From positions 5,504,001 through 5,568,000 of the forward strand of contig OY761556.1 in the NCBI GenBank assembly GCA_963664705.1: a stretch of DNA of 64,000 bases, read 5' to 3'. Shown piece by piece: positions 570-48,783 of the stretch. Source of the stretch: Acidobacteriota bacterium (GTDB lineage: Bacteria > Acidobacteriota > UBA6911). The notes under the pieces are model-generated. The model saw only the letters and a program-made list of their open reading frames with translations. It made no database searches and was not told where the DNA came from. Every line of letters begins with the position of its first letter. Positions within the stretch are counted from its first letter, which is position 1. A program made the position numbers and the translations under genes.

Positions 570-3500
570 ATGAATTCCAGATTGCAGGCTTTTTGTAAAA
601 CGCTCATGGAGGCCGGCTGGCTAGCGGCCGTGGCGATCATTCCGCTGTTCTTTAACGCCTCTTCCATTCAGACATTTGAGCCGGGCAAGTCATTTGTGCT
701 CAAAAGTCTGGCGCTGATTTCCGGGGCAGCCTGGCTGCTAAGGCGAATAGACGAAGGCGGCCTGCAAATCGGGCAACAATTTAAGTCTCTCATGCGGAAG
801 CCGTTGGTATTTCCTGTCTTCATTCTCGCGGGAGTTTATCTGGTGAGTTCCGCGCTTTCGGTGGCGCCTCATCTTAGCTGGTGGGGTGCGTACTATGAAG
901 CCCAGGGGACAGCGACATTCCTGTGCTATGCAGTTTTTTTCCTTATTGTCCTGACCGAATTGCGCAGCCCCGACCAGGTGAACAGATTGCAATACACCAT
1001 TGTGTTGACCAGCATTCCTGTCGCAGGCTATGCGGTGACGCAGCGTTTTGGAGGAGACCCCTTTCGGTGGGAAGATGCATTTGATGGCCGTTCCGGTGGG
1101 AGCATGGGAAATCCCATTTTTCTGGGCGGCTATCTGATTATGGTAATTCCCCTGACTTTTTGCCGGCTCATTGATGGGCTAAAAGTGTTCCGAAGTGTCT
1201 CTGACCGACGGCCTGTTTTAGTGCGCGCTTGTTTTTGCGGCCTGGCTTTGGTGCTACAGGTTCTGGCTCTTCTTTATACCGAAAGTCGCGGGCCCCTGCT
1301 GGGCTTGGCTGTCGCCGGCTATTTTTGCCTTTCGATTTATCTGATTTTGAGCAAATCGCCTCGACAATCCGGCGCCGCGATTTCTGTTACCCCTGTTTTG
1401 TTGGGAGTTTTTATTCCTGTTCTTGCGCTGGCGGCGGTCCTCCTGGCTTCACGCTTTTTCCCGGGACATGTTTTTGCATGTCTTGAGGTTGTGGTTGCCA
1501 TCATCGCGATTTTGTTTTGGAGCATCTGGAAAACCGCGTGGGGCCGGTCCTGGCTTTGGCTGACATTTCTCGTCCAACCCCTGGTTCTATCTCTTGCGGT
1601 TGCGGTTATTCCGGCGAACATTGCATTCAGAAGTCAGGGGCCGATCGCACCTTTCGGCCGCATTACGCAGCTCTCGGATCCGGGAGTTAAATACAGAGAG
1701 GGTCTTTGGGAGACCGGGGCGCGTTTTCTGAAGGATGGCCCCAAAGCAGATCTGCCGGATGGAACTCCCGATAGCTATCACGTTTTGCGTTCCGTTCTGG
1801 GCTATGGCCCGGAATGTACGTGGTTCGTTACCAATACACTCGCGACTCCTTCATTGATTCGCTACCGCTTCCAGGAATCTGAGAATCGGATGCACAATGA
1901 GATATTTGACGATCTCATCACAACCGGCTATGCCGGGACAGTGGCATATCTGATCCTTGTGGCCAGTGCTTTTTACTACTCTCTTCAGTTTGTCGGATTT
2001 TCCTTTGAGCGGCGCGCCAGGATTGGTTTCGTCGTGCTTGCCATTATCGGGGTCCTTGCCGGCTTATTGATTCCGTGGATGGCCGGCATCCCGCAGTTCA
2101 TAGGCCTTGGGATTACGGTGGGGCTGTTGGCCGGTATTTTTGCATCGATTCTCTGGAGCGGGATTCGATCGCAAGGTGGAGTGGAAATTAGCGCGCGTCA
2201 ACTGCTGGTTCTTGGAATCCTTGGCGCGCTCACCGCTCACTTTATTGAGATTTCAGTAGCGGTTTCCGTCACGTCTACCCGTGTCTATTTCTATCTGTAC
2301 CTGGCGCTGATTGCCGTCTGTTGTTCCGGAGATTGGGTCGCGCAGGAACAGCCCGCAAAGCGCGCCAAAGCCAAATCCTTGAATGCAGAAGCGAATCCAT
2401 GGGTAGCCTTTGCCGCGATCGCCTCCGTTATCGTGTTCGTGCAAACCTGGTGTTTTACCTTTAGCCCCGGAAATGAAACGAGCGCGATCGAGCTTTTCTC
2501 CAAATGCTGGTTCGGCACTTTCGATGGAGGTCAGACCCGGGTCCACACGGCAGTATTGTTGATGCTGCTGACGATTTTTGCCGGTGCGGCCCTTACGTAT
2601 GCCGAGGCTTCCAAGACATCCGCTTGGAAATCCATCATCGGCTTTTCCGCCTTGCTGGCGGGGGTGTGGCTCATTGCGGGCCTGATGTCGGCCTACTTTT
2701 GGGCAGGGTTGGATAACCCAACGCCCCTTGATTACTCCCAACATGCCGAAGCGCGGATGACCCTGTTCGTATTTGGCTGTTTGTTTCTGATCGCAGCAGT
2801 AACTCTTATTCTGCGCGCTGCCGGGCTGCCCGGATCAAAGGATAATTCCGTTCGGAGTTTCGCTGTAATCGCCGGAATTCTCCTGATCATTGGGGCCGGG
2901 ATAGGGACCTGGCGATTGACACTTCGCCCGGCATGGGCAGATATTGCGGCACGCACCGCGCGCATCTATGAATCCACTGGAGATGCTCGCTCTGCCTCCC
3001 TTTTGTACGAAAGAGCCGTAGGGCTGTCGCCCCAAGTGATCCAATACCATTTCTATCTCGGACTGGCACAGATTAAAGCTGCGGGTTTCGATCGTATACG
3101 GTTGGACCAGGCGCGGGCAACCCTGCAAGAAGCCCAAGCTCTGAATGCTTTGGATCCTGTTGTCTACCGGACTTTTGGCACATACCATCTGTATGTGGGG
3201 GAACATTCCTCTGATCCGCAGACTCGGAATACGGAAATTACCCAGGCGATAGGATATTTTGAAAAGGCGCAGAAACTGGCTCCCGGCTATCCCAATGCGT
3301 ACGATGAAAAAGGACGATGCCTTTCACTCCTGGGCAGCTATGAACAGGCGGAGAATGTTTTTCAAAGATCGATGCAGATGCATCCGGATTACTGGCTCAC
3401 TTACAAATACAGGGGTGAGATGCAGTATCGGCAAAGAAATTTTGAGGCTGCGCTTCAAAGTTTCAACAAGGCAGCGGGACTAAATCCAAATGACCTGGAC

Positions 3501-3755
3501 TGCCCGAAAAACGCCGGCGTCCTGCTCGTTCTTCTGGGCCGGCCGGGCGAGGCCATTCGCATAACTCTGGAAGCGCTAAAAAAGGCCCCCAATGATTCCA
3601 TGCTGCTGGCAAACGTCGCGTCCTGGTATTTCCTCGCAGGAGATTACAATGCAGGCACCGATTTTGCGAAGCGTGCCTATGACCTAATTCCAGGCGCATC
3701 TAAAGGTAGTTTTGCGGATTATAGGGAGAAGCTGCAGAATAAAACGTGGAACTAG
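570..3755 (+). CDS. O-antigen ligase/oligosaccharyltransferase (Wzy_C-type) polytopic membrane protein with C-terminal TPR repeats
   Basis: 1061 aa with many TM helices. Motifs GNPIFLGGYL, TESRGPLLGL, GYGPE and RMHNEIFD are typical of the WaaL/PglL-like family. The last ~270 aa are TPR-like helical repeats. Confidence 0.8.
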   Translation: MNSRLQAFCKTLMEAGWLAAVAIIPLFFNASSIQTFEPGKSFVLKSLALISGAAWLLRRIDEGGLQIGQQFKSLMRKPLVFPVFILAGVYLVSSALSVAPHLSWWGAYYEAQGTATFLCYAVFFLIVLTELRSPDQVNRLQYTIVLTSIPVAGYAVTQRFGGDPFRWEDAFDGRSGGSMGNPIFLGGYLIMVIPLTFCRLIDGLKVFRSVSDRRPVLVRACFCGLALVLQVLALLYTESRGPLLGLAVAGYFCLSIYLILSKSPRQSGAAISVTPVLLGVFIPVLALAAVLLASRFFPGHVFACLEVVVAIIAILFWSIWKTAWGRSWLWLTFLVQPLVLSLAVAVIPANIAFRSQGPIAPFGRITQLSDPGVKYREGLWETGARFLKDGPKADLPDGTPDSYHVLRSVLGYGPECTWFVTNTLATPSLIRYRFQESENRMHNEIFDDLITTGYAGTVAYLILVASAFYYSLQFVGFSFERRARIGFVVLAIIGVLAGLLIPWMAGIPQFIGLGITVGLLAGIFASILWSGIRSQGGVEISARQLLVLGILGALTAHFIEISVAVSVTSTRVYFYLYLALIAVCCSGDWVAQEQPAKRAKAKSLNAEANPWVAFAAIASVIVFVQTWCFTFSPGNETSAIELFSKCWFGTFDGGQTRVHTAVLLMLLTIFAGAALTYAEASKTSAWKSIIGFSALLAGVWLIAGLMSAYFWAGLDNPTPLDYSQHAEARMTLFVFGCLFLIAAVTLILRAAGLPGSKDNSVRSFAVIAGILLIIGAGIGTWRLTLRPAWADIAARTARIYESTGDARSASLLYERAVGLSPQVIQYHFYLGLAQIKAAGFDRIRLDQARATLQEAQALNALDPVVYRTFGTYHLYVGEHSSDPQTRNTEITQAIGYFEKAQKLAPGYPNAYDEKGRCLSLLGSYEQAENVFQRSMQMHPDYWLTYKYRGEMQYRQRNFEAALQSFNKAAGLNPNDLDCPKNAGVLLVLLGRPGEAIRITLEALKKAPNDSMLLANVASWYFLAGDYNAGTDFAKRAYDLIPGASKGSFADYREKLQNKTWN

Positions 3756-3777
3756 GCTTTACCTGCGGGTGATAAAA

Positions 3778-4048
3778 CCTGACTTGACCGAAATAGTAAC
3801 CCCATTAACCGCGAAGACCTCGAAGACCGCAAAGAAAATATTCTTGCGGTTATCGTTCTCGCCAGATCATACGCTGGATTCCATCCTTGAAGCCTCATAC
3901 ATCAGGCACCGCTGAATCGACAATAGGATGCGCAACTTCTTTCCTATCCATCACGCCATCTCATTGCCCGGCAGCAAAATGAGCCAATAGATCTTTGCGG
4001 TCTTCGAGGTCTTCGCGGTTCAAAGAAAAAACTGATAACTTAAAAAAG
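3778..4048 (-). mobile_element. Miniature inverted-repeat element, copy A (decayed GxxExxY cassette)
   Basis: Perfect 29-bp inverted repeats at 3807-3835 (aaccgcgaagacctcgaagaccgcaaaga) and 3992-4020. Block-wise homologous, in reverse orientation, to the four units at 43985-45317. Confidence 0.85.
3850..3951 (-). pseudogene. Internally deleted GxxExxY protein gene remnant
   Basis: The minus strand reads MDRKEVAHPIVDSAV from the ATG at 3951. Shifted frames then give QRCLMYE and FKDGIQRMIWRER*, resembling the N- and C-termini of GxxExxY proteins. Confidence 0.7.
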
Positions 4049-4105
4049 TTATAGAGTGAAGCTGCAGAACAAAACGTGGAACTAGGTTTTACCTGCGGGT
4101 GATAA

Positions 4106-4159
4106 AACGCCACGAATTACGCAGATGCTCTTTGCGAACTCTGCGTAACCCGTGGCGTT
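4106..4159. repeat. Palindromic hairpin (9-mer microrepeat type), probable bidirectional terminator between convergent genes
   Basis: aacgccacgaattacgcaga ... tctgcgtaacccgtggcgtt. Confidence 0.65.
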
Positions 4160-4172
4160 GTTGTTTCAGCCA

Positions 4173-6878
4173 TCAATTCGATTTTGGATCCGGCGTGGGA
4201 GTCTGCTTATTTCCCGGTGCTTCCGTCTTCGGAGTTTTTTCCTTACTGGTGTTTTTCTCCACCTTCTTTTCCTGGTTCGCTCTTTCTTTCCTGGCGTCCT
4301 GGATCTCTTCCGCCCTCTCCTTATCCTTCTCGTTCTGGAATTTGCGGACGTGCTTCAGGGAATCCTTCAACTCCTGAGACATGTCATGAAGTTTTTCCGG
4401 CGTGCGGATCACGTGCGGAGTAATCAGAATGATCAGTTCGGTTCTGGCGGCATTTCGGGTTGTTTGCCCGAATAGGGCTCCCAGGATCGGAATCTGGGAA
4501 AGGAATGGGATCCCGCTCCGCGATTCATTACTGCTGTCACGAATCAACCCCGCGATCGCGACTGTTTCGCCATCTTTTACGGATAGCGTTGTGGATACGC
4601 TTGTTTTGGAAAAACTGGGAGCACTGGTTTCTCCGATAGGAGTGCTGGCTCCCGGGGCGCTGATTTCCTGCACCAGGTCCATGGTAACGGAACCTGAAGC
4701 AGAGATGCGGGGAACCACGATCAGCGTAATCCCGGTGTCGCGGTATTCCACACTGGTCGTGCTGCCACCAACGGAAGGAGTAAAACTCGTGCCCGGATAG
4801 GGTATTTCAGAGCCGACCATGATTTGAGCCTGCTGCCCATCAAGCGCAAGAACGGAGGGCGATTCCAGCACCTTTACTTTTGTTTTCAGTCGAAGCGCTT
4901 CAATGGAGGCCATGATTTCCCGGGCGTTGCCGACAGGAACAAAAGTCTTTGCAGTCAACAAGCCATCCGAAGTGAGATCTCCGGTGGTTAATTTGGTATC
5001 TCCCTTAGCCTGGAGTGCGGCCGCCACGCCAAAATTCAGGCTGTCGGTCAAGTCCACTTCAAAAATTCGTGCATCGATCAATGCCTGCCGAGGCATGACA
5101 TCCATTTTCTTGATGGTTTCAGAGATATAGGCGTAGTCCGCCGAAGTAGCCTGGATAATGAGCGAATTGTTGATGTCATCCACCACCATGCGGACGGTAT
5201 CCTGCAATCCCGTGAGCTGGCCGCCGCGCAAAACCTGGGAGCTGATGGTCCTCTGATTATTGAGTTGAGGCCCGAGTTGCCGGCCGGCGCTGAAAGCGCC
5301 TCCGCCAAATCCTCCGTATCCTCCGCTATATCCCCCCCCATATCCGCTCGATGATCCCATGCTGGAACCGCCACCAAAAAGCCCTGATCCGGACTGGCCC
5401 GCAACCGAACCTCCGCCAGTTGCGAGACTGGTTCCGGAACCAAAGGTGCTCTGGCCGCTTCTGTTTATTCCGGCGGTTCCTGTCGGACTTGTGCTTCCCC
5501 CGCCAGATCCTCCCGCATTGCTGCCCGTGGATCCCTCGCCGCCATACAAAGCCGAAAGCATCATGGCAATATTGGAGGCTGTTGAATTTTCAACAATGTA
5601 TACGTAGGTTTGAATGTTTTTTGCGGAAGACGAGTCGAGCTCCCTAATCCAGCCCTTTACTTCCTCAAGCGCTCTCTTGGAGCTGGTCATCACGAAAATT
5701 GCATTGATGCGATCAAGGGAAACAAAAGAAACGCCAGTGGCCGAATCTTTTGATCCGGATCCATAAAGCTTTTTGAGATCATCGACCACGTCTGATGAAG
5801 AATTGTTTTGGACCTTGACCAGCTCAACCAAATCCGGGTCGAGATAGTTGTTGTCGAGCATCCGGACGATCTGAAGAATCCTGGAAATACTGTCCGTGTA
5901 ATCGGTCAGGATAAGCATATTCAGCCGCTCGAATGGCATGATGGCTCCTCCCTCGGTCATGAACAGTTTTATAGGTTCAATCAGATCCTTTACCGGCACA
6001 TATTCAACACGGATGATATTCGTGGTCAGCCGCGTCGATTTTGGGCTTTCCTCTTTGGCCGCAGGAGCAGGGGCGGTCAGTTTTTCGCCTTTTCTTGCGG
6101 CTTCCTGCTTGGCCAGAGTTTGAAACGTGGAAAGGGTGCCCGGATTTGCTCCCGCCGGTCCCATCGAAGGAGGCATGTTTGCCGGTAATTTGGCCGGTGA
6201 AGATGGCGATTCCTTAACGCCCGTTGAGCCGGGCAAGTACTCGATGATATCGACGCCTCTCTTTAAGGCCGAAGAAATCGGAATGATCTGGTAGATACCC
6301 CCCTGTCGTACCAGGGCGGCATTGTTGTTCTTGAGTATGATATTGAACAGAGGCAGGACGTCATCCTTAGAAAGGGCTTCCGAAGTGAGAAGATTCACGG
6401 TCCCCTTCACTTCCGGATCCACGATCACGGGAGTCAAACCCAGCATGCTGGTAATCTGGTTGACGAAATCATACAGATCCGCGTTCTCGAAATTCAGCTT
6501 TACTTTTCCAGCCTGTGAAGTGGAAGCCGGAACGGCAGGCGCTACCGGAGGGGCTGTGGGTTGCGGCTGCGGCGGCTGAGGCTGAGCCGATTGCGGCTGA
6601 GGCGGTGCCGGCTGTGGAGGCACCGGCTGCGAAGGCACGGGAGTTGCAACCGGGCGTGGCTGCTGGGCCGGCGGGACCTCCGGGTTCGGTTTGGCAATAG
6701 GCTGCACTTGCAGCAGTTGCTTCGAGAGGATTTCCAGTGCGCGCCGCCTGGTTTCGTCTGTACTGGGAAGACGCGCTGGATCCTGGGATGTCCATGCTAT
6801 CGAAGACAAGCCGCTTAAGAACAGCGCGGCTAGAATTACGATGATGGCTTTCCTTAAAATCTTAGTACTCATGGCCAT
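4173..6878 (-). CDS. gspD: Type II secretion secretin GspD
   Basis: Signal peptide, Pro-rich linker, N0 domain (LNFENADL), N3 domain with a Gly/Ser loop, and secretin domain (LSQIPILGALF...RTELIILITPHVI). Start set at the ATG at 6878, which follows the SD gaggagagg. Confidence 0.93.
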   Translation of the reverse strand: MAMSTKILRKAIIVILAALFLSGLSSIAWTSQDPARLPSTDETRRRALEILSKQLLQVQPIAKPNPEVPPAQQPRPVATPVPSQPVPPQPAPPQPQSAQPQPPQPQPTAPPVAPAVPASTSQAGKVKLNFENADLYDFVNQITSMLGLTPVIVDPEVKGTVNLLTSEALSKDDVLPLFNIILKNNNAALVRQGGIYQIIPISSALKRGVDIIEYLPGSTGVKESPSSPAKLPANMPPSMGPAGANPGTLSTFQTLAKQEAARKGEKLTAPAPAAKEESPKSTRLTTNIIRVEYVPVKDLIEPIKLFMTEGGAIMPFERLNMLILTDYTDSISRILQIVRMLDNNYLDPDLVELVKVQNNSSSDVVDDLKKLYGSGSKDSATGVSFVSLDRINAIFVMTSSKRALEEVKGWIRELDSSSAKNIQTYVYIVENSTASNIAMMLSALYGGEGSTGSNAGGSGGGSTSPTGTAGINRSGQSTFGSGTSLATGGGSVAGQSGSGLFGGGSSMGSSSGYGGGYSGGYGGFGGGAFSAGRQLGPQLNNQRTISSQVLRGGQLTGLQDTVRMVVDDINNSLIIQATSADYAYISETIKKMDVMPRQALIDARIFEVDLTDSLNFGVAAALQAKGDTKLTTGDLTSDGLLTAKTFVPVGNAREIMASIEALRLKTKVKVLESPSVLALDGQQAQIMVGSEIPYPGTSFTPSVGGSTTSVEYRDTGITLIVVPRISASGSVTMDLVQEISAPGASTPIGETSAPSFSKTSVSTTLSVKDGETVAIAGLIRDSSNESRSGIPFLSQIPILGALFGQTTRNAARTELIILITPHVIRTPEKLHDMSQELKDSLKHVRKFQNEKDKERAEEIQDARKERANQEKKVEKNTSKEKTPKTEAPGNKQTPTPDPKSN

Positions 6879-6948
6879 GTGGCTTCCTCTCCTCGAGAGT
6901 TTCCGCAAAACTGAATAAACACTGCGGAACCGCAACGGACGATCTGAT

Positions 6949-6974
6949 TGCGTCCAGATAAAACTTTTGTTTCC
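6949..6974 (-). promoter_or_regulatory. Candidate ECF-type promoter upstream of gspD
   Basis: Minus strand GGAAAC-N16-CGCA, resembling the AAC/CGT ECF consensus; single motif only. Confidence 0.25.
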
Positions 6975-7063
6975 ATTAGCCCAAGGTGCGATCAACAACC
7001 TTCAGGCGAGGCGGAATGGCCTCATCGGTAGTGCCGATGATCCTGTCGCTACCGTACAAACAA

Positions 7064-19926: not shown

Positions 19927-20031
19927 ATCGGGGACGTCCCACCCATTCGCCGGTTTTTTGAGCGGTGTATCGAATGGAGTCCCGCCTATGCACCCCGTAA
20001 AAAGCAGGTGAATGAGCGGGACGTCCCCGAT
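19927..20031. repeat. REP-like inverted repeat pair between secA and guaB
   Basis: atcggggacgtcccacccattcgcc ... ggtgaatgagcgggacgtccccgat. Confidence 0.7.
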
Positions 20032-43930: not shown

Positions 43931-43984
43931 CTTCTGTCTCCTGCTACTAATACACCGGGAAACACAACTCTCGATATTTCGGGA

Positions 43985-45317
43985 TCAAATCAGGTCCCAT
44001 AAATAAATGGTGTTGATTAGTTTTTATGTTTGAACCGCGAAGACCTCGAAGACCGCAAAGATTTATTGGCTCATTTTGCGGTGGGAAAGAAGTTGCGCAT
44101 CATATTGTCGATTCAGCGGTGGCAATCCATACAGCGCCAGATTGCTGGAGGCCGTTTCTCGGCGGTGCCTGATCTGGCGAGAACGATAACCGTAAAACCT
44201 GAAAAAATATTTTCCTTCGCGGTCTTCGAGGTCTTGGCGGTTAATGGGATTACTAATTCGGTCAAGTCAGAAAAAATATTTTCCTTCGTGCCTTGCGCTG
44301 CTAATACACCGGGAAACACAACTCTCGATATTTCGGGATCAAATCAGGTCCCATAAATAAATGGTGTTGATTAGTTTTTATGTTTGAACCGCGAAGACCT
44401 CGAAGACCGCAAAGATCTTTTGGCTCATTTTGCGGTGGGAAAGAAGTTGCGCATCATATTGTCGATTCAGCGGTGGCAATCCATACAGCGCCAGATTGCT
44501 GGAGGCCGTTTCTCGGCGGTGCCTGATCTGGCGAGAACGATAACCGTAAAACCTGAAAAAATATTTTCCTTCGCGGTCTTCGAGGTCTTGGCGGTTAATG
44601 GGATTACTAATTCGGTCAAGTCAGGTGCCTTGCGCTGCTAATACACCGGGAAACACAACTCTCGATATTTCGGGATCAAATCAGGTCCCATAAATAAATG
44701 GTGTTGATTAGTTTTTATGTTTGAACCGCGAAGACCTCGAAGACCTCGAAGACCGCAAAGATCTTTTGGCTCATTTTGCGGTGGGAAAGAAGTTGCGCAT
44801 CATATTGTCGATTCAGCGGTGGCAATCCATACAGCGCCAGATTGCTGGAGGCCGTTTCTCAGCGGTGCCTGATCTGGCGAGAACGATAACCGTAAAACCT
44901 GAAAAAATATTTTCCTTCGCGGTCTTCGAGGTCTTGGCGGTTAATGGGATTACTAATTCGGTCAAGTCAGGTGCCTTGCGCTGCTAATACACCGGGAAAC
45001 ACAACTCTCGATATTTCGGGATCAAATCAGGTCCCATAAATAAATGGTGTTGATTAGTTTTTATGTTTGAACCGCGAAGACCTCGAAGACCTCGAAGACC
45101 GCAAAGATCTTTTGGCTCATTTTGCGGTGGGAAAGAAGTTGCGCATCATATTGTCGATTCAGCGGTGGCAATCCATACAGCGCCAGATTGCTGGAGGCCG
45201 TTTCTCAGCGGTGCCTGATCTGGCGAGAACGATAACCGTAAAACCTGAAAAAATATTTTCCTTCGCGGTCTTCGAGGTCTTGGCGGTTAATGGGATTACT
45301 AATTCGGTCAAGTCAGG
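43985..45317 (+). mobile_element. Miniature inverted-repeat element copies B1-B4 (43985-44288, 44339-44625, 44676-44971, 45022-45317)
   Basis: Each copy has aaccgcgaagacctcgaagaccgcaaag ... cttcgcggtcttcgaggtcttggcggtt and ends tcggtcaagtcag(g); homologous to copy A. Confidence 0.85.
44086..44189 (+). pseudogene. GxxExxY gene remnant (repeated at 44440-44543, 44786-44889 and 45132-45235)
   Basis: KEVAHHIVDSAVAIHTAP, then a frameshift to (G)LLEAVS(R/Q)RCL, fused to IWRER*; resembles the recalled pattern IVD-A--IH--LGPGLLESVY--CL. Confidence 0.75.
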
Positions 45318-45329
45318 TGCCTCGCGCTG

Positions 45330-46250
45330 CTAATACACCGGGAAACACAACTCTCGATATTTCGGGACACGACCCTTGACTACATCGAAGTATAGAGTGC
45401 GCAGCTTGCCTGTGATCGGCCCCATCTGTCCGGATCCGATCGGTCGATGATCGACCTTCGTAATCGCCGCTATCTGGACGCCGGTTCCACAGAAGAAGAT
45501 CTCATCCGCCAGGTAGATTTCGGTTCGATCGATAGGCCGCTCCACCACCTCAACACCCAGTTCATCGCGAAGGAGCATCATAACCGTTCGTCGGGTGATC
45601 CCTTCAAGAATGTTGTCTGTAACGGGTGGTGTGCACACAACTCCCTTGCGGACCATGAAGAAATTCTCCGCGGACCCCTCGGCTACATGCCCGTCCTGAT
45701 TCAAAACGATGGCTTCGTCATACCCTGATCGCTGCGCATCGGTTTTGACAAAGGCCGAGTTTACATAGGATCCGGCGATCTTGCCGCGTGCGGGGATCAT
45801 ATTGTCATCGATGCGCCTCCAGGAGGATATCGTGACGTGGCTCCCTTCTTCATTTTCCACGTAGGATCCAAAGGGGATCGCTATCATCGATATTTCCGGA
45901 TGGAGATCGTGGAGACGGACTCCAATGATTTCATCCGAGAAGTAAGCGATTGGCCGGATGTAGCAGTCGGTGCGGTAGTTTTCTGCCTTGATCAGATCCG
46001 CGAGATAACCCGTGAGCTGAGCTTCCGAATAGGGGAACTGCATTAACAACAGCTTTGCAGATTCCAGGAAACGACGGAAATGGTCCTGCGGCCTGAAAAG
46101 GAATAGCTGGTTTTCCGCTTCATTCCAGTATCCACGCAAACCGCCGAATACACCCGTTCCATAGTTAAGAGTATGGGTCAGAACACCAATTTTAGCTTCG
46201 CTATATGGAACAATCCGCCCTTTGAAAAATGCAAAATGAGGCAGAGTCAT
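45330..46250 (-). CDS. ilvE: Branched-chain amino acid aminotransferase
   Basis: LNYGTGVFGGLR, KIAGSYVNS, EGSAENFF, ILEGITR; ATG at 46250 follows the SD aaggagg. Confidence 0.95.
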   Translation of the reverse strand: MTLPHFAFFKGRIVPYSEAKIGVLTHTLNYGTGVFGGLRGYWNEAENQLFLFRPQDHFRRFLESAKLLLMQFPYSEAQLTGYLADLIKAENYRTDCYIRPIAYFSDEIIGVRLHDLHPEISMIAIPFGSYVENEEGSHVTISSWRRIDDNMIPARGKIAGSYVNSAFVKTDAQRSGYDEAIVLNQDGHVAEGSAENFFMVRKGVVCTPPVTDNILEGITRRTVMMLLRDELGVEVVERPIDRTEIYLADEIFFCGTGVQIAAITKVDHRPIGSGQMGPITGKLRTLYFDVVKGRVPKYRELCFPVY

Positions 46251-46375
46251 TGAACATCCTCCTTCGTCCACACCGGCTAATGCACAGGGGTGTAACGGCT
46301 ATCATACCACGTATCGTCGAAACGCTGTTATTGGTTAACTTGGAGTGACGTGTTTGCCGGTCCCGCTTTGGATCC

Positions 46376-48749: not shown

Positions 48750-48783
48750 AGAGAATTCCAGATTCCAGATTTCGGATTCCAGG
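48750..48783. repeat. Heptamer microrepeat tract
   Basis: gagaattccagattccagatttcggattccagga. Confidence 0.5.

Follow-up and report, generated by a model that had tools for sequence, protein, structure and literature searches.

The two GxxExxY-related repeats (copies A and B) in the 64,000-nucleotide stretch of an Acidobacteriota genome that we analysed (the window) are most likely decayed, non-autonomous composites, in which a GxxExxY gene sits between palindromic arms inside IS1634-family ends, and which were probably moved in trans by a DDE transposase (Table 1). Both copies descend from a gene that is still intact elsewhere in the genome, one core deletion is shared across many copies of the family, long direct repeats abut the IS ends, and related genomes hold the complete form. 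From these sequence comparisons we infer movement in trans by an IS1634-family transposase, which would also be the source of the long direct repeats.

Two remnants of a gene that survives intact

Copy A (3778-4048, minus strand of the window) lies between the 3′ ends of a gene for a TPR-repeat membrane protein (570-3755) and gspD (4173-6998). Copy B consists of four tandem units (43985-45317), identical to one another at 283-296 of 287-296 positions, flanked by malQ and a gene for a branched-chain aminotransferase (45330-46271, minus strand). In both cases a neighbouring gene ends inside a direct repeat: 3719-3777 contains the stop (3753-3755) and final codons of the upstream membrane protein gene, and 45318-45367 those of the aminotransferase gene. 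The palindromic arms of copy A pair with each other in the predicted fold (z -7.2). Short-read contigs from runs that may represent the source sample match copy A and both flanks with 0 differences, in three overlapping or nearly overlapping pieces, none of which crosses the whole.

Table 1 Parts of copies A and B, with positions in the window
Feature	Position	Strand	Evidence or content
Long direct repeat of A, copy adjoining the IS right end	3719-3777		55/59 identical to 4049-4107
IS1634-type right end (IRR) of A; 13-bp terminal repeat at 3778-3790	3778-3805	-	26/28 matches to the final 28 bp of the IS (G000:C1:6057793-6059434)
Right palindromic arm of GxxExxY cassette, 29 bp, 9-nt period	3807-3835	-	100% complementary to 3992-4020
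GxxExxY remnant of A, keeping parent nt 1-39, 93-110 and ~338-381 but neither nt 40-92 nor the nuclease core	3850-3951	-	Comparison with parent and alignment of loci
Fused 9-bp repeat left by secondary deletion of A; common to 5/28 loci	3907-3915	-	Alignment of loci
Left palindromic arm of cassette, A	3992-4020	-	Complementarity with 3807-3835
Truncated left flank of A; IS left end gone	4021-4048	-	Comparison with IS ends
Second copy of long direct repeat of A, orphan 3′ end of upstream gene	4049-4107		Comparison with 3719-3777
First copy of 50-bp direct repeat of B	43935-43984		46/50 identical to 45318-45367
B unit 1	43985-44271	+	10-bp remnant of inner IS end, left arm (44033), GxxExxY remnant (44083-44189), right arm, IRR (44244-44271)
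17-bp copy of element-internal sequence, then 50-bp direct repeat	44272-44338		Sequence comparison
B unit 2	44339-44625	+	284/287 identical to unit 1
50-bp direct repeat between units 2 and 3	44626-44675		Sequence comparison
B unit 3; left arm with one extra 9-nt period	44676-44971	+	Sequence comparison
50-bp direct repeat between units 3 and 4	44972-45021		Sequence comparison
B unit 4	45022-45317	+	296/296 identical to unit 3
Last copy of direct repeat of B, directly after IRR	45318-45367		Sequence comparison

In the gene remnant of copy A, MDRKEVAHPIVDSAV and FKDGIQRMIWRER* share a reading frame and QRCLMYE lies in a different one; copy B reads KEVAHHIVDSAVAIHTA and LLEAVS(R/Q)RCL. A first-pass annotation of the window had picked out these peptides and proposed that complementary deletions in the two copies could be merged to rebuild a GxxExxY gene. 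All of the features it described are present. Relative to B, copy A lacks 46 nt lying between paired 9-bp repeats that agree perfectly in B units 3 and 4 and at 8 of 9 positions in units 1 and 2; B lacks the start-codon region and 35 nt between ATCA sites that lie at 3866 and 3901 in A.

A PF13366 search of this genome returned three whole genes and one fragment. Among the whole genes is an intact 126-amino-acid GxxExxY parent (G000:C1:2163563-2163940), which lies within the same palindromic arms and passes the cut-offs of both TIGR04256 (E = 1.3e-39; 135 bits against 35) and PF13366 (PDDEXK_3; E = 1.6e-36; 126 bits against 22), with GxxExxY, DxxxD, ExK and QxxxY motifs. The DNA of both copies is collinear with it: copy A matches nt 1-44 (93%, E = 3e-13) and nt 338-380 (95%, E = 2e-14), and copy B matches nt 8-104 (84-85%, E = 1e-24 to 9e-26). 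The annotation was thus correct in assigning the pieces to a GxxExxY gene (collinear matches of E = 1e-13 to 9e-26), and A and B are deletion derivatives of this intact TIGR04256/PF13366 gene, with about 60-100 of 381 coding bases left and with frameshifts. Because the intact parent exists, the homology is beyond chance and merging A with B to rebuild the gene is unnecessary. When the protein fragments of A and B were compared by themselves with a profile built from 27 distant homologs, they did not reach significance (E = 0.04-0.8), so it is DNA-level identity with the parent that carries the family call.

Nuclease activity of the GxxExxY protein is suggested by the family name, and a search of solved structures with the protein found 0 relatives at E up to 1. 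Among five intact genes with one capture point, dN/dS is 0.09-0.21 (ten non-independent pairs). The cargo gene is therefore under purifying selection and does something that was selected. Neutral cargo leaves this unexplained, which counts against the composite reading as we state it.

Two tandem copies, likewise without the core of the gene, come after a second, unrelated intact GxxExxY cassette (L001:1420-2300; G000:C1 near 4472300). A small palindrome of another repeat family with a 9-10-nt period abuts the direct repeat of copy A (window 4109-4160), and arms resembling it flank this second gene and sit beside the intact parent.

One core deletion across the family

BLAST grouped the related sequences of this genome into 30 clusters, and 28 loci were kept after two single short hits to flanking repeats had been dropped. 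Alignment of the genomic copies, which had been suggested as a way to map the deletion breakpoints, revealed one core junction (parent nt 109-111 joined to nt 336-338) at 11 of the 28 loci, including A. Core pieces are kept at six loci, all without an IRR, and the remaining loci have deletions that span the junction or too little sequence left to tell. Copy B is among the latter. The one deletion in B (nt 101-361) takes out the junction entirely, and the case for a shared deletion that was made from A and B alone is insufficient; B is placed in the shared-deletion lineage only by a small 6-bp deletion (about nt 60-67), common to B and five other loci, and by the tree.

With the whole family in view, the proposal that the core was deleted before the element spread stands. 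An IRR is present at 17 of the 28 loci; all 11 shared-junction loci are among these 17 and 0 are among the other 11 (Fisher p = 0.0009, for loci that are not independent). In a 22-row tree (each locus represented by a single unit, with copies of <95 filled columns excluded and six copies from relatives included), 13 IRR-bearing copies, A and B among them, form one clade with a UFBoot value of 94, which is moderate on an alignment of ~217 columns; support inside the clade is low. It is very improbable that the gene was still intact while the copies spread and that they then lost their cores independently, or were later homogenised by gene conversion. Core loss does recur, as relatives and other loci in this genome carry different core deletions, but independent loss would have to account for a junction with little microhomology whose position agrees to within 1-2 nt across 11 loci, for the 6-bp deletion shared by six loci, and for the supported clade.

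The secondary deletion of copy A (46-47 bp) occurs at five loci that do not group together in the tree, and may have recurred at the 9-bp repeat. Further tandem arrays of seven, three and three units lie at G000:C1:5193399-5195103, 1489225-1489818 and 5929791-5930822, the first two without an IRR. At G000:C1:270616-270880 and 1666087-1666180 the IRR sits in inverted orientation on the left, the outcome that recombination between the arms would give.

Ends of the IS1634 family and long direct repeats

A first scan found direct repeats at 12 loci, with the right copy starting just after one fixed motif. This 13-bp end motif occurs 43 times in the genome at ≤1 mismatch, against about 8 expected, and two perfect inverted copies of it bound a 1,642-bp IS (G000:C1:6057793-6059434). 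The 490-amino-acid transposase of this IS belongs to the IS1634 family (NF033559; E = 5e-97; 326 bits against a cut-off of 100) and is encoded by one intact gene in the genome. All 13 terminal bases of the right end of A are identical to those of the IS.

Long direct repeats of 39-118 bp start 0-1 nt after the IRR at 9 of the 17 IRR loci, with scores of 32-115 against a maximum of 11 among 150 random control pairs. The other eight IRR loci have no long outer repeat (12 bp at one, none at seven). Repeats also occur at three of the 11 loci without an IRR (24, 42 and 50 bp), and the mere presence of repeats of at least 39 bp (9/17 against 2/11) is not significant (p = 0.11). It is their position that carries weight: because the repeats abut the IS ends and not the GxxExxY arms, the annotation's view that the element had lost its own mobility enzyme with the nuclease core is unsupported. 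The unit that moved ends at IS1634-family terminal repeats, and, against the claim of a lost enzyme, the intact GxxExxY gene and the six loci with core pieces remain in the genome.

Both terminal repeats are present at two of the 17 IRR loci, and at two loci the long repeat is flush with both IS ends. No IS left end is found at 14 of the 17, A and B among them, so these copies are unable to move as two-ended elements now; we assume that the left ends were lost after insertion. A different course, in which the same IS1634 vehicle inserted by one end and template-switch repair produced both the ragged left end and the long duplication at once, seems to us quite improbable. It would fit the exact right ends, the truncation of those 14 left ends at varied points, and the 5-12 bases of microhomology at two of the junctions examined, others having unrelated filler. 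Both ends are flush, however, in two copies here, in most copies of two related genomes (G005 and G021) and in five autonomous homologs; the interior is eroded by the same kind of short-repeat deletions, such that later loss suffices; and a donor-flank origin of the filler DNA was unsupported on tracing.

The single resident IS has no long repeat of its own and its left part has diverged from that of the composites; it may be a relative of the true mover. One query for the transposase found no match in 29 other genomes of the genus, the holders of composites included, most of these assemblies being fragmented. Gene-less MITEs of the same IS are present in this genome and in one relative. Orthologous sites in the 29 genomes were too distant or not syntenic to serve as empty sites, and no joint that removes the element appeared in four short-read runs (with one run yielding no reads).

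At the 11 loci without an IRR, a MITE body in the right flank was not above control, and a match of 11-13 bases to the IS left end at two of nine positions is only suggestive. A fixed 6-base target stands beside the left end in 3 of 20 contexts from partly redundant loci. Insertions face the 3′ end of the neighbouring gene in 10/17 and 11/17 cases, counts that come from a crude ORF caller and are not conclusive. Between the two repeat copies of A, two of three coding differences are synonymous, and at a second locus (G000:C1 near 270600) several differences seem synonymous too; both sets are too small for a test.

Complete composites in relatives

Copy A is matched in 9 of 40 related genomes. 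The complete form occurs in G005, G021 and one metagenome contig, and reads IS left end, 103-117-bp MITE, inner right end, cassette and outer right end; two of these three holders have an intact gene. Repeats of 39-75 bp flank four of the seven complete composites. The join of MITE and cassette, read by eye, looks alike in all relatives and suggests one capture.

Among 22 transposase loci fetched from other lineages, 10 had both ends and flanks and were examined. Five of these autonomous IS homologs (~1.65 kb) have repeats of 81, 91, 143-177, 222 and 294 bp flush with both ends. The 27 more distant GxxExxY genes, of which 25 come from a draw of 251 genomes of the phylum and two from this genome, present a different picture: inverted arms exceed the control maximum in 24, and the 13-bp IS terminal repeat was found within 500 bp of none. 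Arms without IS ends at these distant genes indicate that the cassette and the IS ends are separate things that were joined in this genus.

These comparisons bear on the reading closest to that of the annotation, in which the GxxExxY nuclease moves the copies in trans through their palindromic arms, much as in REPIN/RAYT systems, and the IS ends are passengers. An intact gene under purifying selection in the same genome, well-kept arms (87 matches at ≤5 mismatches, overlapping periods counted), the 11 IRR-less loci with direct repeats at three, and the wide occurrence of gene and arms without IS ends would all suit such a mover. We nevertheless regard it as improbable. The duplications begin beyond the arms: on the right at the IS end, which lies about 28 bp further out than the arm, and on the left, in copies that retain it, at the IS left end, 60-150 bp outside the arm; long repeats accompany only 3 of the 27 IS-free cassettes, and in one of these three the repeat is simply the cassette copied in tandem; and the autonomous IS homologs show the same long repeats. 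The function of PF13366 is given as 'Unknown' in the available text of PMC3424549, and the literature searched records no function or transposase activity for the GxxExxY/PF13366 family. The IS1634-family transposase is thus better supported here as the mover, and an abundance of GxxExxY palindromes without the gene does not show that the nuclease moves them.

In G005 a composite (L051:473-720 and L063:2167-2235, split over two contigs and matched by eye) occupies, in the same orientation, the 3′ end of gspD, which is also a neighbour of copy A. Its repeat is the end of gspD itself, and it is likely an insertion independent of copy A. At L024:68-1222, an IS701-like transposase gene is directly upstream of the IS1634 element.

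A possible history and its place among known elements

We hypothesize that a gene-less IS derivative of ~115 bp came to flank a pre-existing GxxExxY cassette and that a second right end closed the unit, with the long duplications themselves possibly providing the route of capture. A single copy in this genome would then have lost parent nt ~111-337 and nt 60-65, and the gutted copy would have spread to 11-17 sites, each with its own target duplication of 39-118 bp. Pieces, including most left ends, may have been lost later, often between short repeats, and arrays such as B could have grown by unequal recombination between the long repeats. On this account the duplications would leave the ends of neighbouring genes intact and seed tandem arrays. 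We also entertain, as an unlikely extension, that the GxxExxY nuclease is a working partner, kept intact by helping the composite to persist or insert. A selfish cassette would then be riding on the ends of a transposon unrelated to it, while A, B and other gutted copies would freeload on both enzymes.

The closest precedents for the long repeats are IS1549 of Mycobacterium smegmatis and IS1634 of Mycoplasma mycoides, for which PMC2266710 gives direct repeats of variable length (8-514 bp) and states that, as of 2008, no mechanism had been put forward. Our elements resemble them in having a DDE transposase of the same family and long variable repeats (39-118 bp here and 81-294 bp in the homologs); those elements are autonomous, whereas the repeats described here flank transposase-less composites with cargo. 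Most IS1634-family members make 5-6-bp repeats, and the composites are of the atypical long type. A MITE with 8-bp repeats is the subject of PMC11448079, which in its available part adds nothing on long repeats.

Other likenesses concern the architecture. MIC231 and MITEs similarly hold a passenger gene inside IS ends, have no transposase and are moved in trans (PMC6199540, PMC9330008), but the ends of MIC231 come from IS231 (IS4 family) and those here are of the IS1634 type, with a whole MITE as the left part and a palindrome-flanked cassette as the passenger. Tn6097 (PMC3281130) demonstrates that IS1634-family ends can move intervening DNA; unlike our composites, it has two complete ISPfe2 copies, a 14-kb cargo and 6-bp repeats. 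REPIN/RAYT systems share inverted arms around a decaying spacer, dispersal between genes, many gene-less copies and one intact gene (PMC3116915, PMC3337134), although the gene here is of the PD-(D/E)XK type (PF13366) and not a tyrosine (HUH) transposase, and IS repeats beyond the arms mark the limits of the unit that moved. We found no IS1634 element with GxxExxY-type cargo in the literature searched, which left most subscription papers and the ISfinder collection out of scope. Within it, the composite appears to combine known kinds of parts in an arrangement that we did not find described.

At about 0.7 kb, with both ends known, a cognate transposase of 490 amino acids and about a dozen long duplications, the composite is a compact natural substrate. 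It could be useful for learning how elements of the IS1549/IS1634 type make long duplications of variable length, a question that PMC2266710 regarded as open in 2008. The conserved cargo gene also offers a handle on an uncharacterised protein family.

Two other repeats lie in the window. One, at 48754-48782, belongs to a different short-period family that has >200 BLAST hits in the genome, often adjoins these elements and is also found at G000:C1 near 1489100 and 6774900. The other, at 19927-20031, is a REP-like 44-bp inverted repeat that is 80% complementary.
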